From contig JBCBYI010000001.1 of assembly GCA_039815945.1 (NCBI GenBank), positions 1 to 48,457 of the forward strand: 48,457 bases of DNA, read 5' to 3'. The position numbers were made by a program, and so were the translations under genes. Each line of letters begins with the position of its first letter. The first letter of the stretch is position 1. Below, piece after piece: positions 4,397 to 46,366 of this stretch. Under the pieces are notes generated by a model. It saw only the letters and a list, made by a program, of their open reading frames with translations. It was not told where the DNA came from and ran no database searches. This DNA comes from Actinomycetota bacterium (GTDB taxonomy: Bacteria > Actinomycetota > Acidimicrobiia > Acidimicrobiales > Aldehydirespiratoraceae).

Positions 4397-5299
4397 GTGC
4401 TCCTCCGATCAACTCCGCCACGGAACCCACGCCGTTTTGGTCACACCACTGTTCGAACTCACCGAGGATCCGCCGTGGTGCACGCGGATCCGCGAACGTC
4501 GCCGTGCCGACTTCGACCGCCGACGCTCCGGCGAGCAGGAACTCTACGACATCGGCTCCGCTCGATGTTCCACCCACACCGATGATCGGCAGGTCGGGCA
4601 GGGCCTCGTGCACGTCGTACACCGCCCGGACGGCGACCGGATGCATCGCCGCTCCCGACAGGCCGCCCTTCTTGGCCCCGAGGACGGGTCGGCGGGAGTC
4701 GATGTCGATCACCATGCCGAGCAAGGTGTTGGTGAGCACGACCGCCTCGGCGCCGGCACCGTGGGCCGCCGCCGCGATCTCGGGCAGATCCGCGGCGTTG
4801 GGGCTGAGCTTGGCCCACATCGGCCGGCCGACGACCTTCGACGCGTCGATCACCTCGGCGGTCGCGGTGCGACTGTGGGCGAACATCGATCCGCGGTCCT
4901 CGAGATTCGGGCACGAGACGTTGACCTCGACCGCGACGACACCGTCGGGAGCGTCGGCCAGCGCGGCGGCAGCCCGGGCGTAGTCGTCGACGCTGCTTCC
5001 CCAGATCGATGCGACGACCGTTGCGCCGGTGGCGAGCAACTCGGGCAGGTCGTGTTCGAGCCAGTGGGGCACGCCCTTGCCCTGGAGCCCGACGCTGTTG
5101 ATCATCCCCGACGCGGTCGGGTGGACCCGAGGCGACGGGTTGCCCGCCCACTCCTCGGCCTTCATCGACTTCACCACCACGGCGCCGAGCGATGCCGGGT
5201 CGAGATAGTTCGCGAACTCCGCACCGTGACCGGCGGTGCCGGACGCGGTCATGACCGGCGCCCGGAGGGCCACCGACCCGACCGTCGTGCCGAGATCCA

Positions 5300-5300
<1 letters not shown>
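4389..5300 (-). CDS. pyrD: dihydroorotate dehydrogenase, class 1 type (catalytic subunit)
   Basis: 303 aa. MTASGTAGHG, EVNVSCPN (active-site Cys, class 1) and GGTSSGADVVEFLLAGASAV. No pyrK-like partner is adjacent. Confidence 0.9.
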
Positions 5301-8608
<3,308 letters not shown>

Positions 8609-40682: not shown

Positions 40683-41417
40683 ATGGCGGTCAACCGGTTG
40701 ATGCAACGCATGTTGTCGTGGCGCTACCGCGGCGACATCCCCGCCGACTGGCGGCCGTACCTGGCCGAGCTCGACTTCGTCGGCACGCTCGATGACGACG
40801 AGACGCAGCGCCTCGTCCAGCTCGCCCGCATGTTCGAAGCGGTCGTGCGCTTCGACGGCCGCGAGGGCATCGATGTCGACGAACGCAAGATCCGCCTCAC
40901 CGCACTCCAGGCGTGCCGGCTGATCCTCGAACTCGGCTACGAGCCGTACCGGTACGTCCATCGGGTCACGTTCGTGCCGGGCACGTTTCACATGGAGACC
41001 CGGCAGGGCAAGGTCCGGGCGAACGGTGCCGCCGACTCCGGCGGCCATGTGGCGCTCTCGTGGACCGAGACGGTCGCCGGGATGTACGACGGCGACGGCC
41101 GCAACGTCGTGTACCACGAGTTCGCCCACGTCCTCGACGGCTACGACGGCTTCGTCGACGGGCGTCCGAGCGTTGACGAACCGGGCCGCTGGCGAAGAAT
41201 CGTCGGGTCGTCGTACGAGACCCATCGCCGCAGCCGCAAGAAGAAGGCGCTGATCGACGCCTACGGCAAGACCAGCGAGGTCGAGTTCTTCGCCGAGATC
41301 GTCGAGGTCTTCTTCGAACGCCCCGAAGAGCTCCACGAGGAGCAACCCGACCTGTACGACGTGCTCGCCGACTACTTCGACCAACGCCCGGGCTGGATCG
41401 ATGGAGCACCGACATGA
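40683..41417 (+). CDS. MtfA-like zinc metallopeptidase (M90 family)
   Basis: 244 aa from ATG 40683 (GAGGA 7 nt upstream). VVYHEFAHVLDG (HExxH) and the C-terminal EVEFFAEIVEVFFERPEEL..PDLYDVLADYF signature typical of MtfA/YeeI. Confidence 0.8.
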   Translation: MAVNRLMQRMLSWRYRGDIPADWRPYLAELDFVGTLDDDETQRLVQLARMFEAVVRFDGREGIDVDERKIRLTALQACRLILELGYEPYRYVHRVTFVPGTFHMETRQGKVRANGAADSGGHVALSWTETVAGMYDGDGRNVVYHEFAHVLDGYDGFVDGRPSVDEPGRWRRIVGSSYETHRRSRKKKALIDAYGKTSEVEFFAEIVEVFFERPEELHEEQPDLYDVLADYFDQRPGWIDGAPT

Positions 41418-42010
41418 GCGCCGTCGATCCCTGGGACGCCGCCGCCGACGGCTGGGACGACGATCCCGCCGCCCGGGCCTACGCCGGTGCCGCCTTCGAG
41501 TCGCTCGTGGCCGTGCTCGACGGCTTCGGCCGCTCGCTTCTCGGGCTCCGCGTCTGCGACTTCGGCTGCGGCACCGGCCTGCTCACCGAGCGTTTGGTCA
41601 CCGCCGGCGTCGCGTCGGTCGATGCGGTCGACACCTCCGACGCCATGCTCGCCGAGCTCCACGCGAAGGCCGACCGGCTCGGCTGGACGAACGTCCGCTC
41701 ATCGGCGGAGATCCCCACGTCACCCGGCCGCCACGATCTGGTCGTGTGCTCCTCAGTGCTGGCGTTCGTGCCCGATCACCCGGCCACGGTCGCCCGACTC
41801 GTCGAGCTCCTGGCCCCCGGCGGCGTGCTCATTCAGTGGGACTGGCAACTCGATCCCGACGAGGCCGAGCCGTACGGCCTCACCACTGAGGCGATCCAGA
41901 CCGCACTCCGCACCGCCGGCCTCCGCGATGTCGAGGTGGGCGTCGGCTTCGAGCTGCCCTTCGGGGACATGGTGATGCGCCCGCTGATGGGCGTCGGCCG
42001 GAAGGTCTGA
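41414..42010 (+). CDS. class I SAM-dependent methyltransferase
   Basis: 198 aa. Motif I VCDFGCGTGLLT, post-I VDAVDTSDAML and LLAPGGVL. ATGA overlap with the upstream gene. Confidence 0.8.
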   Translation: MSAVDPWDAAADGWDDDPAARAYAGAAFESLVAVLDGFGRSLLGLRVCDFGCGTGLLTERLVTAGVASVDAVDTSDAMLAELHAKADRLGWTNVRSSAEIPTSPGRHDLVVCSSVLAFVPDHPATVARLVELLAPGGVLIQWDWQLDPDEAEPYGLTTEAIQTALRTAGLRDVEVGVGFELPFGDMVMRPLMGVGRKV

Positions 42011-42013
42011 CGC

Positions 42014-43171
42014 TCAGTCGGTCGGCTGGTTGCGCCGCTCCACCATCCGGGTGAAGTGGTGGGCGAAGTCCATCGTGTCGTCGGGGTTCGCATCACCCCC
42101 GAACGGCCAGTCGGGTTTCGCCGTCGGCAACTCGAACGAGAACGACTGGCTCTGCGGGATCCGGCACGCGAGCGCGTCGCACGCCTGCCATCGCACTCGG
42201 CCGGTGATCGTGAGCGACTCGATCTTGGGCGACGACGTGTTGACGATCGGCAGCCGGAACTCGACCGTGCCGTCATGGACGGGGAACACCTCGTCGGTGC
42301 CGTCGAGGTGATGGTCGTGTGCGGCAGGGCCGACCATCGCCCGCAGGCCGATCTGGTCGGTGTCGTCGAACTCGATCGTGAACGGCACCATCCCCTCGGG
42401 GGCCGGATCGGCGTAGACGTGCTGGCCCTCGGGGATCGCCAGCCGCACCACGACGTCGTGTTTCACGATGGCGGCGATGTGGTCACCGTCGTAGCGGATC
42501 TCGGCGGTGACCTCGCCGTCGGCCGGGGCGGGAGCGCCCACCAGCTCGACAGTCTCACCCTGCGCTGCCCGGATCAGCTCGGCGGAGTTGGCCCGCACGC
42601 CGAGGTGCTCGTCGAAGAACTTGGCGATGATCACGCCCTCGGCGTCGAGCACGTACGTCCCCGGGAACGGGATGCCGGCGTAGGGGTGATCGTCGGGATC
42701 GACCAGCGTGTTGCGGATGCCCAGCGCGTCGATGATCTCGCTGTCGGGGTCACTCAAGAGCGGGAACGTGATGCCCTTGTCGGCGGCGAACGCCACGAGC
42801 GCGTCGGGCTCGTCGTACGACAGGGCGTAGAGCGCAACCCCGGCCGCCTCGAAGGCCTCAGCGTGCTGTTGCAGCTCGACCAGCTGCGTGCGACACGGCG
42901 GTCACCAGACCGCCGATCGATAGACGACGAACGCCGTCGGGCGACCAGCCCGGTCGGCCTCGATGTCGACCATGCGCCCGGTGTGGTCGGGCGCCACGAC
43001 TGGTGGCAACCGCTCCCCCACCTCGGGGCCGGTCGGGAACCAGCCGACCGGATTCGAACGGGCACTCGCGCCCGGCTTGAGCGGCCCGAGGTTGCCGAGG
43101 GCATCGCGCCACCAGCCGTTCTCGAGCTGCTCGCCTCGCGTGTCGACCTCGATGTGCGGCGTCTCGCTCAT
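42014..43171 (-). CDS. thioredoxin-fold (AhpC/TSA-redoxin, Prx-like) oxidoreductase fused to a DsbD-N-like domain; in-frame TGA (42902-42904) at the redox motif W-U-P-P-C, candidate selenocysteine (alternative: pseudogene)
   Basis: Tracked ORFs 42902..43171 and 42014..42796 are in one frame, and I read no other stop between them. The translation across the junction is ...RPTAFVVYRSAVW-TGA-PPCRTQLVELQQHAEAFEAAGVALYALSYDEPDALVAFAADKGITFPLLSDPD..., a single redoxin domain. The C-terminal part ends with RWQACDALACRIP, which is DsbD-alpha-like. Confidence 0.6.
42862..42897 (-). promoter_or_regulatory. SECIS-like RNA stem-loop immediately 3' of the in-frame UGA
   Basis: Numbering from the U of UGA as 1. 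Lower stem C8-U12 pairs with G39-G43. An internal loop follows. The upper 6-bp stem is G18CAGCU23 with A29GCUGC34. The apical loop is G24GUCG28. The apical part corresponds to 42871-42887 (gcagctcgaccagctgc on the + strand). Confidence 0.5.
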
Positions 43172-43177
43172 GCGGCG

Positions 43178-43183
43178 ACGGTA
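43178..43183 (-). promoter_or_regulatory. -10 hexamer TACCGT 6 nt upstream of the oxidoreductase ATG (leaderless-type promoter)
   Basis: Minus-strand GGTACCGT-CGCCGC-ATG, with no SD in the 21-nt gap to the upstream gene. Confidence 0.35.
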
Positions 43184-43192
43184 CCGGACCGG

Positions 43193-43501
43193 TCAGGCCG
43201 GGACGGAATCTCGTTCTCGCCGGCCGCCGTTGCGGGCGATGGCGACGAGCACGATCACGACCCGGACAACCGCCGCGACGATGAGCGTTCCCAGGAGCAG
43301 GCCCCACAGCTGCCGTTCGAAGCCCTCGACCGGGGTGTTGCACTGCGGCGGATCCGACGAGTCGACGTCGACGATCAGTGGACCCTCGCAGATCGGCTCG
43401 CCGTCGGTCGTCAAGAAGAGCGCCGCCGTCACCACGACGAAGACCACGAGCCAGACGACGAACAGCCGCAGCGCGTCACGGACGATCGGCCGAGTCCCCA
43501 T
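43193..43501 (-). CDS. small 2-TM membrane protein with two Cys in the connecting loop
   Basis: 102 aa. TM1 LRLFVVWLVVFVVVTAALFL, loop ...EPICEGPLIVDVDSSDPPQCNTP... and TM2 LWGLLLGTLIVAAVVRVVIVLVAIA. High third-position GC. I recognise no family. Confidence 0.5.
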   Translation of the reverse strand: MGTRPIVRDALRLFVVWLVVFVVVTAALFLTTDGEPICEGPLIVDVDSSDPPQCNTPVEGFERQLWGLLLGTLIVAAVVRVVIVLVAIARNGGRRERDSVPA

Positions 43502-43525
43502 CCGTGGAGCTTCGCACGTCCCGGG

Positions 43526-44158
43526 TCAGGCCTTCGGGCGCCGGGCGAGCACCACGCCTTTGTCGAGTGGACGGCCGCCGTCCGGGGCCGGCGCCGCGCC
43601 GTGCTGCACGCCGACGAACCCGGCGGCACTGAGGAGCTCGCCGATCGTGGCGGGATCGAACTCGTAGGCGGTGGCCACCTGATGATCGAACGGCGTGCCG
43701 TGCGCAGCCGGTTCCCGCGACGCGAAGAAGAACAGTACGACGGGAGCACCTGACGCGAGGACGCGTTCCCATTCTGCGAAGACGGCCGGCAGCGCATCGG
43801 GCGCCAGATGGATGATCGAGTAGCGGGCGAAGATCCCACTGAACGACGACGACGCCGCGTCGAGCGCGGTCAGGTCGTCGACGAAGAACGCCAGCTGCGG
43901 GAACGCCCGCTGGGCCTGCTCGATCATTCCGGGCGACGCATCGATGCCGAAGGCCGGGAGACCCGCCCGAACGAGCGCGTCGACGCCGTGCCCGGGTCCG
44001 CAACCGACGTCGACGACCGGCCCCATTACTGGCTCGACGAGATCCACGAACCGGGCCAGCCAGCCCTTGGCGTCGGCGTCGTTCTCGAGGTCGTCGAGGA
44101 ACAACGACGCGTACCGCTCTGCGACCACGTCGTACGCGGCGGCGACGTCGTCGGACAT
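43526..44158 (-). CDS. class I SAM-dependent methyltransferase
   Basis: 210 aa. Motif I VVDVGCGPGHG, post-I FGIDASPGMIEQA and VLASGAPVVL. Confidence 0.8.
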   Translation of the reverse strand: MSDDVAAAYDVVAERYASLFLDDLENDADAKGWLARFVDLVEPVMGPVVDVGCGPGHGVDALVRAGLPAFGIDASPGMIEQAQRAFPQLAFFVDDLTALDAASSSFSGIFARYSIIHLAPDALPAVFAEWERVLASGAPVVLFFFASREPAAHGTPFDHQVATAYEFDPATIGELLSAAGFVGVQHGAAPAPDGGRPLDKGVVLARRPKA

Positions 44159-45250: not shown

Positions 45251-46366
45251 ATGTTGACGGCGGTGCATGACGAACTCGACGGGATCGATCTCCGCGCCTG
45301 TTCGCGCCCGGAGCTGCGGCAGTTGCTCGCCGAGTACCACCGGGTCGAGACCCACGCCGCGCAGCGTCGGCTCGCCGTGATGGCGGCAATCGATGCGCTG
45401 GGCGACGACGGCATGCCGGCGGCTACCGAGGCTCGGGTCACCACCCACCGGTCGAGCCGGAGCAGCGACCGCGATGCCGAGACGGCCTCGGTGCTGGCGG
45501 CAGTGCCCGGTGCTGCGGATTCCCTGGCCGCCGGTGCGATCACCGTCGAGCACGCCGAGCGTCTCGGGGTGCTGGTACAGGAGACCTCGGCCGAACAGGT
45601 CGCCGAGCTGATCCCGCTCGCCGAGCAGACCCCGGCCGATCTCTTCCGCAAGAAGTCCAACCGCTGGCTGTCGAGTCGGCGTTCGTTGCAGGCCGTCGAG
45701 GAGCAGCACCGCCGTCAGCGAGCCGAACGCGAGCTGAGCGTGTGGTTCGAGGGTGGCGACGCCGAGAACGGTGCGCTGCTGATCAACGGCCGGATGGACA
45801 ACGCCACCGGGCGCCAGTTCCAGGCTGCGCTGCGAGCGCTGGTCGACCGCTTGTAGCGAGAGGACGGCGGCCGTGACGGCTCACCGAACGACGTACGCAC
45901 GCCCTCCCAGCGGCGGATCGACGCGCTCGCCCTGATGGCGACCACGGAGGTCGATGCTGACGCTCCCCTGCCGGTGCGCACGATGCTGCACCTGATCGCC
46001 ACCGTCGACGACGACTCGGTCGAGTTCCTCGACGGCCAGCCCGTGCCGCAGGCGTTCCTCGACTCGCTCGATCCTCGCACCGCCGATGTCGTCGGCCATG
46101 TGTTCTCCGGCGCCGGCAAGCCGCTCTGGACGGGCCGGCGGCACCGTCTCGCCACCGTGCATCAGTGGCCCGCCCTGATCGCCCGTGATCGTGCGTGTGT
46201 CGACTGCGGCGCCGACGTTGCGTTCACCGAAGCGCACCATCCGCACGAGTGGGGCCATCACGGCCTCAACGACATCGACAACCTCGAGTTGAAGTGCCAC
46301 ACCGATCATGCGTTGGCCCACCGAGGGTCCCGGGGCGAACGACGATCCAGACCTCGGGCCGCCTAG
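45251..46366 (+). pseudogene. DUF222 / HNH endonuclease (mycobacterial REP13E12-like family) interrupted by one in-frame TAG at 45854-45856
   Basis: Tracked ORFs 45230..45856 and 45935..46366 share a frame. Reading through gives ...ALRALVDRL-TAG-REDGGRDGSPNDVRTPSQRRIDALALMA..., then the HNH region CVDCGADVAFTEAHHPHEWGHHGLNDIDNLELKCHTDH. Confidence 0.7.

Follow-up and report, generated by a model that had tools for sequence, protein, structure and literature searches.

We analysed a 48,457-nucleotide stretch of DNA (the window) from an Actinomycetota bacterium (assembly GCA_039815945.1, contig JBCBYI010000001.1, positions 1 to 48,457). On the minus strand of the window lies a gene whose reading frame is interrupted by a single TGA at the catalytic position of a thioredoxin-fold domain, and whose product continues into a second domain resembling the alpha domain of DsbD. 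An earlier interpretation made from the letters alone, which we call the sequence-only reading, had proposed that this TGA encodes selenocysteine (Sec). We consider it very likely that the locus is one gene for a 385-residue selenoprotein, neither two genes nor a pseudogene. The features of the gene and its present GenBank annotation are collected in Table 1.

Table 1. Features of the candidate selenoprotein gene and the GenBank entries that cover it. Positions are those of the window. CDS, coding sequence; aa, amino acids; SECIS, selenocysteine insertion sequence; Ig, immunoglobulin.
Feature	Position	Strand	Details and basis
Complete selenoprotein CDS (predicted)	42014..43171	-	385 aa plus stop; ATG 43171-43169; terminal TGA 42016-42014; single frame with one internal TGA
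Putative Sec codon UGA, residue U90, W-U-P-P-C motif	42902..42904	-	TGA in 80/80 loci; Cys in full-length relatives
Codon of C93, predicted resolving Cys of U-x-x-C	42893..42895	-	Cys in 80/80 loci
Candidate bacterial SECIS hairpin	42871..42887	-	stem 42887-42882 / 42876-42871; loop GGUCG 42881-42877; translated as (T)QLVEL(Q)
Hydrophilic N-terminal extension, residues 1-48	43028..43171	-	pattern ..ETRG..GW.D.DGF.GP..PG.GPR.DP.G.FPTGP; read-through translations of 80 loci
Redoxin domain (Pfam AhpC-TSA/Redoxin), residues 51-182	42626..43021	-	Pfam E 1.9e-25
DsbD-alpha-like Ig-fold domain (DsbD_N), residues 237-346	42134..42463	-	PF11412, 30 bits against a cut-off of 25
Putative second redox centre C331-D-A-L-A-C336 (W-Q-A-C-D-x-x-x-C)	42164..42181	-	C331 and C336 invariant in 116 aligned members
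C-terminal helix MDFAHHFTRMVERR, consensus HFQRMxxRR	42032..42073	-	H372 and F373 nearly invariant, R379 invariant
GenBank MEO0491815.1, 'hypothetical protein AAF081_00215', 89 aa	42902..43171	-	5' part, ends at the Sec codon; exact look-up
GenBank MEO0491814.1, 'DsbD domain-containing protein', 212 aa	42014..42652	-	3' part, truncated call; exact look-up; GTG 42652-42650

Reading frame and conservation of the internal TGA

Translation of the frame running from 43171 to 42014 gives 385 sense codons, and the sole internal stop is the TGA at 42904-42902, which stands in the context ...AFVVYRSAVW-TGA-PPCRTQLVELQQ.... The mechanical list of open reading frames (ORFs) divides the locus into an 89-aa ORF (42902-43171, minus strand) and a 260-aa ORF (42014-42796, minus strand). 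These occupy the identical frame, and translation confirmed the claim of the sequence-only reading that only the TGA separates them. The GC content of third codon positions (GC3) is 0.87-0.92 in the selenoprotein frame on both sides of the TGA. The closest genome relative, a Candidatus Microthrix metagenome-assembled genome (MAG; locus L001), encodes a protein that is 89% identical and shares the start, the TGA and the frame. Compared with this relative, 27 codons differ synonymously and 11 non-synonymously upstream of the TGA, and 88 and 30 downstream; counted by codon position 1/2/3, the differences number 8/4/33 upstream and 27/14/103 downstream. The GC3 values and this synonymous excess bear out the coding bias that had been noted in both halves, and by this comparison of sequences purifying selection is acting in one frame on both sides of the TGA.

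DNA was fetched for 80 related loci from 80 species-representative genomes of about four phyla, in which the tblastn matches span residues ~7-381 and so run across the TGA. By record title these loci comprise 33 from Actinomycetota (Acidimicrobiia: Poriferisodalis, Ilumatobacter, Microthrix), 32 from Gammaproteobacteria, 11 from Acidobacteriota and 4 others. The aligned codon is TGA in every one (80/80), within the conserved context RSAVW-TGA-PPCR[STAVG]QLV[EQ]L[QE]. Full-length relatives with Cys at this column also exist (P0009, P0022, P0065, P0243, P0252, P0276 and others), and the three Cys-form genes that were fetched carry the codon TGC there. The homologue comparison that the sequence-only reading had suggested thus came out as TGA throughout the 80 loci, with Cys in a few full-length relatives.

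Public protein sets hold the family largely as fragments. A protein search with the full-length query returned 445 relatives; among the best 120 of these, 116 are ORFs that start downstream of U90, mostly about 280 aa long and beginning a few residues past the active site, while three are full-length, all with Cys (WCPAS, WCPLC and WCPIC), and one further sequence is a 617-aa tandem duplicate. The downstream-only ORFs begin variously as VELQQ..., MQLVELQ... or M..F.AAG..., at start positions that vary between genomes. Searching with the N-terminal half returned dozens of 'hypothetical proteins' of 82-109 aa that end at the U position, the window's own MEO0491815.1 among them. A profile search of 1.84 billion cluster representatives gave 263 clusters at E <= 1e-30, and about 133 of the best 150 begin at or past the active site; of eight full-length cluster representatives that were read, seven have Cys and one has Ser (P0277). 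In a 72%-identical Acidimicrobiales relative the gene is split in the same way (MDW3218874.1 and MDW3218873.1), as it is in many metagenome gene calls.

Two simpler explanations of the split have to be set against these results. One is that a Cys-type redoxin gene was inactivated by a change from TGC or TGT to TGA, or that the TGA is an assembly or sequencing error. A single base separates these codons, the source is a MAG, and GenBank annotates two separate CDSs. However, 80/80 relatives that were assembled independently have this TGA, purifying selection acts on both halves in one frame, and the hairpin described below covaries; we regard this explanation as vanishingly improbable. The other takes the UGA as a true stop: the 89-aa N-terminal polypeptide would end there, translation of a C-terminal piece would be initiated separately (for example by termination-reinitiation), and the two might associate non-covalently. 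Gene callers do yield exactly these two products in many genomes, and a GTG is present at 42796. Such a break, however, would split the active-site motif and the first beta-alpha unit of the thioredoxin fold. The 35 codons from the UGA to the first start codon are also highly conserved at the protein level, downstream ORF starts differ among genomes, the Cys-form relatives are single chains, and the geometry of the hairpin, with its invariant loop GU, is that of a SECIS, all of which leaves two polypeptides very unlikely. Taken together, the invariant TGA, the gene-caller fragments and the Cys forms make a pattern for which neither a pseudogene, nor a base-call error, nor two independent genes can account.

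Genetic-code reassignment was also considered and is excluded, since TGA is an ordinary terminator elsewhere in the window, ending neighbouring genes and the selenoprotein gene itself. A scan of the window for further in-frame stops with coding signal on both sides found ordinary gene junctions only. Long spurious ORFs lie antisense to real genes throughout the window, as is typical of DNA with 69% GC, and GC3 is needed to pick out the coding frames; one such ORF (42056-43753, plus strand, 565 aa) lies opposite the selenoprotein gene.

Several relatives depart from the common form. P0117 and P0230 (616-617 aa) carry the whole module of redoxin and DsbD-alpha-like domain twice in tandem. The P0117 sequence has a first copy truncated at the Sec site, followed by one whose site is degenerate, reading SADW-D-FYS without Cys or Sec. 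A more distant branch (P0276, P0295, P0332, P0353, P0356 and P0277) has N-terminal signal peptides and the motif SADWCPYCK, and from these sequences the redoxin/DsbD-alpha-like family seems to include both exported and non-exported forms. At locus L081 (8643-9908 and 10001-11167) a di-haem cytochrome c peroxidase/MauG gene is followed directly, on the same strand, by the gene for Cys-form P0009, whose active site, WCPAS, has no resolving Cys. This adjacency hints at a peroxide- or haem-related role in the P0009 lineage.

The hairpin downstream of the TGA

Immediately 3' of the TGA, within the coding sequence, lies a candidate bacterial SECIS (bSECIS) hairpin with the sequence GCAGCU-GGUCG-AGCUGC. 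It begins 14 nt from the UGA, with 20 nt between the UGA and the apical loop, and has a stem of 6 bp, a loop of 5 nt with G in the first loop positions, and an energy of -10.4 kcal/mol. The published limits for bSECIS elements are a loop of 3-9 nt, a stem of 4-16 bp, G within the first two loop positions, a spacing of 16-37 nt and a minimum free energy <= -7.5 kcal/mol (PMC13188914), and the hairpin lies within all of them. It resembles the E. coli fdhF-type bSECIS (Zhang & Gladyshev 2005 consensus, summarised in PMC13188914) in being a coding-region hairpin just 3' of the UGA with a small loop in which G is followed by G/U. It differs in that its helix is short (6 bp, sometimes 7) and in that the alignment has no conserved bulged U or extended lower stem.

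Comparison across genomes shows that this structure is maintained. The GU in the loop is invariant across the alignment, and the stem is 88% paired in 73 distinct sequences, a figure that falls to 5-44% if the 3' arm is shifted by 1-3 columns. The closing pair (columns 24-40) is GC in 50 sequences and CG in 22, coupling a synonymous third position of Thr/Ser to the first position of Gln/Glu, and the fourth pair (27-37) is GC in 65, AU in 4 and GU in 4. Two pairs thus covary, and the observed covariation was not reached in any of 500 shuffles. Synonymous choice is also frozen within the stem. The Glu codon at +9 is GAG in 76/76 cases, compared with 52 GAG and 28 GAA for Glu at +31, and the Leu codon at +10 ends in G in 80/80 where other conserved Leu positions use four to six codons; flanking four-fold sites have a third-position entropy of 1.5-1.8 bits. 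In the Cys-form genes the QLV(E/D)LQ peptide is retained, and the hairpin is kept with a G-U pair in one and broken by a CTT Leu codon in two, one of them with a further change; with n=3 this is an anecdote and carries no statistic.

The sequence-only reading had also pointed to a SECIS-like hairpin. That the hairpin exists, is conserved and covaries was upheld; its energy in the window sequence alone is not above chance. Its significance comes from the comparison across genomes, not from the lone sequence.

Domain architecture and relation to known families

When Cys is placed at the TGA, the AhpC-TSA match (PF00578) runs unbroken over it at 89.6 bits against a cut-off of 26, in agreement with the earlier proposal of one AhpC/TSA-type domain across the TGA. 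The nearest sequences in the PDB are those of Mycobacterium tuberculosis AhpE and Bacillus subtilis ResA. In the alignments, U90 falls on the first Cys of WCEPC in ResA, and C93 on the second Cys of ResA and on the peroxidatic Cys of AhpE. The ResA alignment, the conserved TGA and the Cys of relatives agree in placing the TGA at the N-terminal Cys of a WCxxC motif, where it is predicted to encode Sec, as had been suggested. An AlphaFold model of the Cys homologue P0022 (pLDDT 86, pTM 0.86) matches the folds of ResA, BcpB and PrxQ with TM scores of 0.8-0.88 relative to the target, those for ResA being given as 0.78-0.83. On the basis of these alignments and models we read the redoxin domain as a ResA/TlpA/CcmG-like thiol-disulfide oxidoreductase with a putative Sec nucleophile, not as a peroxidase.

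The comparison with peroxiredoxins supports the same assignment. AhpE, PrxQ/BCP and the Sec-peroxiredoxins (TxxU) share the fold and the Pfam family with the window protein. However, where AhpE reads H-P-L-A-F-T-G-I-C the window protein reads Y-R-S-A-V-W-U-P-P-C, with Arg in place of Pro and Sec in place of Thr, and the P-x3-T-x2-C motif is absent. Sec-peroxiredoxins carry Sec at the peroxidatic position, whereas in the window protein it would stand at the Thr position. The ResA/TlpA/CcmG (DsbE) proteins share the thioredoxin fold and the W-C-x-x-C site, and ResA structures are among the best fold matches; the window protein differs from them in its predicted Sec for the nucleophilic Cys, in its fused Ig-like domain, and in having no signal peptide or membrane anchor, the marks of their extracytoplasmic location. 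In the cell, ResA/TlpA/CcmG proteins pair naturally with DsbD-alpha or CcdA systems. The window protein falls under no NCBIfam model: the ResA model scores 36.5 bits against a cut-off of 170, the DsbE model 17 against 123, and the peroxiredoxin models are also far below their cut-offs.

The second domain was identified both by Pfam (DsbD_N) and by fold, and the DsbD-alpha-like domain named in the sequence-only reading holds. When the last 212 residues of the window protein were modelled with AlphaFold (pLDDT 86.5), the result contained an all-beta domain, and the C-terminal helix was predicted at residues 196-208 of the model. Seven of the eight best PDB matches to this model in a fold search are DsbD N-terminal domains (Neisseria meningitidis and E. 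coli) and one is ScsB, at E 1.6e-5 to 2.2e-4 and with TM scores relative to the target of 0.59-0.68 for DsbD and 0.34 for ScsB. With the C-terminal domain as query, DsbD was reached by the fold search but not by PDB sequence or profile searches. The domain shares with DsbD alpha and the ScsB N-terminal domain its DsbD_N match and an Ig-like fold (6dnv, 6dps, 1vrs and 3pfu; ScsB 6c29), at a sequence identity of only 13-17%. An invariant Cys pair stands near its end, a putative counterpart of the DsbD pair. The two Cys are spaced C-x4-C, compared with C-x5-C for Cys103/Cys109 of E. coli DsbD alpha. The window protein differs from whole DsbD in lacking the transmembrane beta domain and in its order, redoxin then alpha-like instead of alpha-beta-gamma, which puts the alpha-like domain C-terminal to its putative thioredoxin-fold partner. 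To our knowledge, the DsbD-alpha-type Ig domain is otherwise known only from the periplasmic electron relays of DsbD and ScsB. No signal peptide, Tat motif or hydrophobic segment was found at the N-terminus of the window protein or of relatives with a comparable start, and the protein is therefore probably cytoplasmic.

The sequence-only reading did not recognise this protein as a described selenoprotein family, and in this it has to be corrected. The family was included in ocean selenoprotein lists of 2005-2008: a Sargasso Sea study reported 22 Prx-like selenoprotein sequences (PMC1088965), and the 2008 GOS survey listed 'Prx-like 1' (pfam00578, UxxC) with 225 selenoproteins (PMC2398784). A 2026 review has the entry 'Prx-like thiol:disulfide oxidoreductase, PF00578, UxxC' and places it among high-confidence predictions (PMC13188914, where the Prx-like 1 family is cited to Kryukov & Gladyshev 2004). 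Dataset S1 of the GOS survey holds, under '#Prx-like 1', SAVWUPPC reads of the same architecture, for example ...FYRSAVWUPPCWTQLGEL..., and the string SAVWU occurs there 13 times (PMC2398784). One of these catalogued members, JCVI_READ_1947008, is 40% identical to the window protein over 252 aa (E 2e-57), in a match that runs from the N-terminal extension through the redoxin domain and into the first part of the Ig-like domain.

The window protein thus shares with Prx-like 1 the PF00578 domain, UxxC in place of the TxxC of true peroxiredoxins or of TxxU, and similarity to a catalogued member; the catalogued family is marine and has few Cys homologues. We conclude with high confidence that the selenoprotein gene is genuine, that its annotation is wrong and that it belongs to the known Prx-like UxxC family. 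The family is heterogeneous and also includes short single-domain proteins such as ...YRGHWUPYCRR...; the window protein belongs to one two-domain sub-branch of it. The Prx-like 1 papers define the family by the redoxin domain alone, whereas the window protein adds a DsbD-type domain; no DsbD-type domain is mentioned for the Prx-like family in PMC13188914, PMC1088965 or PMC2398784.

Decoding, proposed redox relay and genome context

One further explanation concerns how the UGA is read. It might be read through without Sec machinery: near-cognate decoding could insert Cys or Trp, or the hairpin could stimulate stop suppression, and position 90 would then hold an ordinary residue. In general, read-through can be stimulated by RNA structures downstream, and the presence of Sec machinery in the source genome is assumed. 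On the other side, position 90 is the catalytic nucleophile and is Cys in non-UGA relatives, the hairpin fits the SelB-type bSECIS model, and surveys of marine metagenomes, which also contain SelD, count the family among the Sec users. Moreover, Actinomarinales, a related order of the same class Acidimicrobiia, has full Sec machinery, and with these points together we allow read-through without Sec only a slight chance. Each of the 84 complete genomes of Actinomarina carries selA, selB, selC and selD (bioRxiv 10.64898/2026.04.03.716425, 2026 preprint), which makes Sec use in Acidimicrobiia plausible. The statement of the sequence-only reading that selenoproteins are uncommon in Actinobacteria needs correction accordingly, as Sec use is documented in Acidimicrobiia, in Actinomarina.

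Under Sec decoding, by analogy with the established bacterial pathway, a ribosome reaching UGA-90 would meet the hairpin just downstream, with its loop 20 nt on. The hairpin would recruit SelB-GTP-Sec-tRNA(Sec), and selenocysteine would be inserted without termination. The ribosome would then melt the hairpin and translate it as T-Q-L-V-E-L-Q, and the hairpin context would distinguish UGA-90 from the terminal UGA (42016-42014). In the protein, the U90 selenolate is predicted to attack a disulfide or another oxidised sulfur substrate, and C93 to resolve the U90 adduct to an internal Se-S bond. The U90/C93 centre of the redoxin domain would then exchange reducing equivalents with the C331/C336 pair of the Ig domain in an intramolecular relay. 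The alpha domain of DsbD exchanges electrons through mixed disulfides with the thioredoxin-fold partners DsbD-gamma, CcmG and DsbC. Such a relay is suggested by the DsbD system together with a fusion that joins a known type of interacting pair in one chain.

The decoding evidence shown by the alignments consists of a conserved Sec-UGA with a covarying SECIS-type hairpin, and the Pfam matches and structural models show two domains with two redox motifs. Several observations weigh against the proposal as a whole. Single-sequence folding of the 50-81 nt after the UGA was no better than for shuffled sequences (z 0.28-0.36), a comparison that is uninformative at 69% GC. Equally good hairpins follow 5.6% of the TGA triplets in the window, counting perfect stems of >= 6 bp with loops of 3-9 nt, G in the first two loop positions and a spacing of 16-37 nt, with energy unscored. 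No Rfam family was found at gathering thresholds anywhere in the window; bacterial SECIS elements are poorly covered in Rfam.

Neither selA, selB, selC nor selD was found in the window, which is the entire 48-kb contig, or in the fetched flanks, and the Sec capacity of the organism is assumed. ARAGORN found no tRNA in the window and no tRNA-Sec among the window and 60 loci, and no Pfam Sel-protein match occurred in the 37 window ORFs judged likely genes. With E. coli SelA, SelB and SelD as queries, tblastn gave no match in the window and, among 83 loci, only a weak GTPase-domain match in L067. No experimental demonstration of selenium incorporation was found for any family member, and the 2026 review rates the family as 'predicted with high confidence' (PMC13188914). 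It would be unusual for a DsbD-alpha-like domain to be cytoplasmic, and the wider family has an exported branch. The relay between the domains we infer from the fusion, by analogy with DsbD.

The neighbourhood of the gene is a conserved housekeeping block comprising, in order, metK, coaBC, gmk, pyrF, carB, carA, pyrC, pyrB, pyrR, efp, pepP, aroB, a prepilin peptidase gene, aroE, mltG, alaS, rarA, aspS, hisS, relA, secF, secD, yajC, tgt, queA, ruvB and ruvC, and no redox partner gene was found in the window. The selenoprotein gene sits between two paralogous genes for S-adenosylmethionine (SAM)-dependent methyltransferases (41414-42010, plus strand; 43526-44158, minus strand), with queA and ruvB further upstream of it. 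At the Cys-form locus L083 a Methyltransf_11/25 gene (5168-5884) lies about 1 kb downstream, possibly by coincidence. Clustering of the flanking ORFs of the 80 loci gave no partner gene conserved across lineages, in an analysis made noisy by spurious high-GC ORFs. A 102-aa ORF (43196-43501, minus strand) stops 21 nt before the selenoprotein start codon, and the two may share a transcript; the ORF has a hydrophobic core, is predicted to encode a small membrane protein and has no Pfam match. Between queA and ruvB, a small ORF (45935-46363, plus strand) gives a borderline HNH endonuclease match (21.8 bits against a cut-off of 21.4).

These results imply no new recoding mechanism and no new selenoprotein class. 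They add to the known family a member from Acidimicrobiia, an explicit SECIS with covariation and, as a minor addition, the observation that a DsbD-alpha-like domain is fused to the redoxin. Calls of the gene are systematically wrong: annotation pipelines still split it, which fits with the lack of an NCBIfam model claiming the protein, and in public protein sets hundreds of its relatives likewise end or begin at the Sec codon, so that their catalytic half is lost from functional inference. The DsbD-alpha fusion and a selenol-thiol relay are not described in the literature examined. We put forward, tentatively and as somewhat less than an even prospect, that these proteins are a distinct, nearly always Sec-using branch of the Prx-like selenoproteins that lacks signal peptides. 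The DsbD-alpha-type Ig domain would be its built-in second redox centre, making each protein a self-contained cytoplasmic selenol-thiol relay, and horizontal transfer would have carried its near-identical SECIS/active-site cassette between Acidimicrobiia, Gammaproteobacteria and Acidobacteriota that are marine and sponge-associated. The fusion gives a testable functional hypothesis for a family that has stood as 'predicted' for about 20 years.

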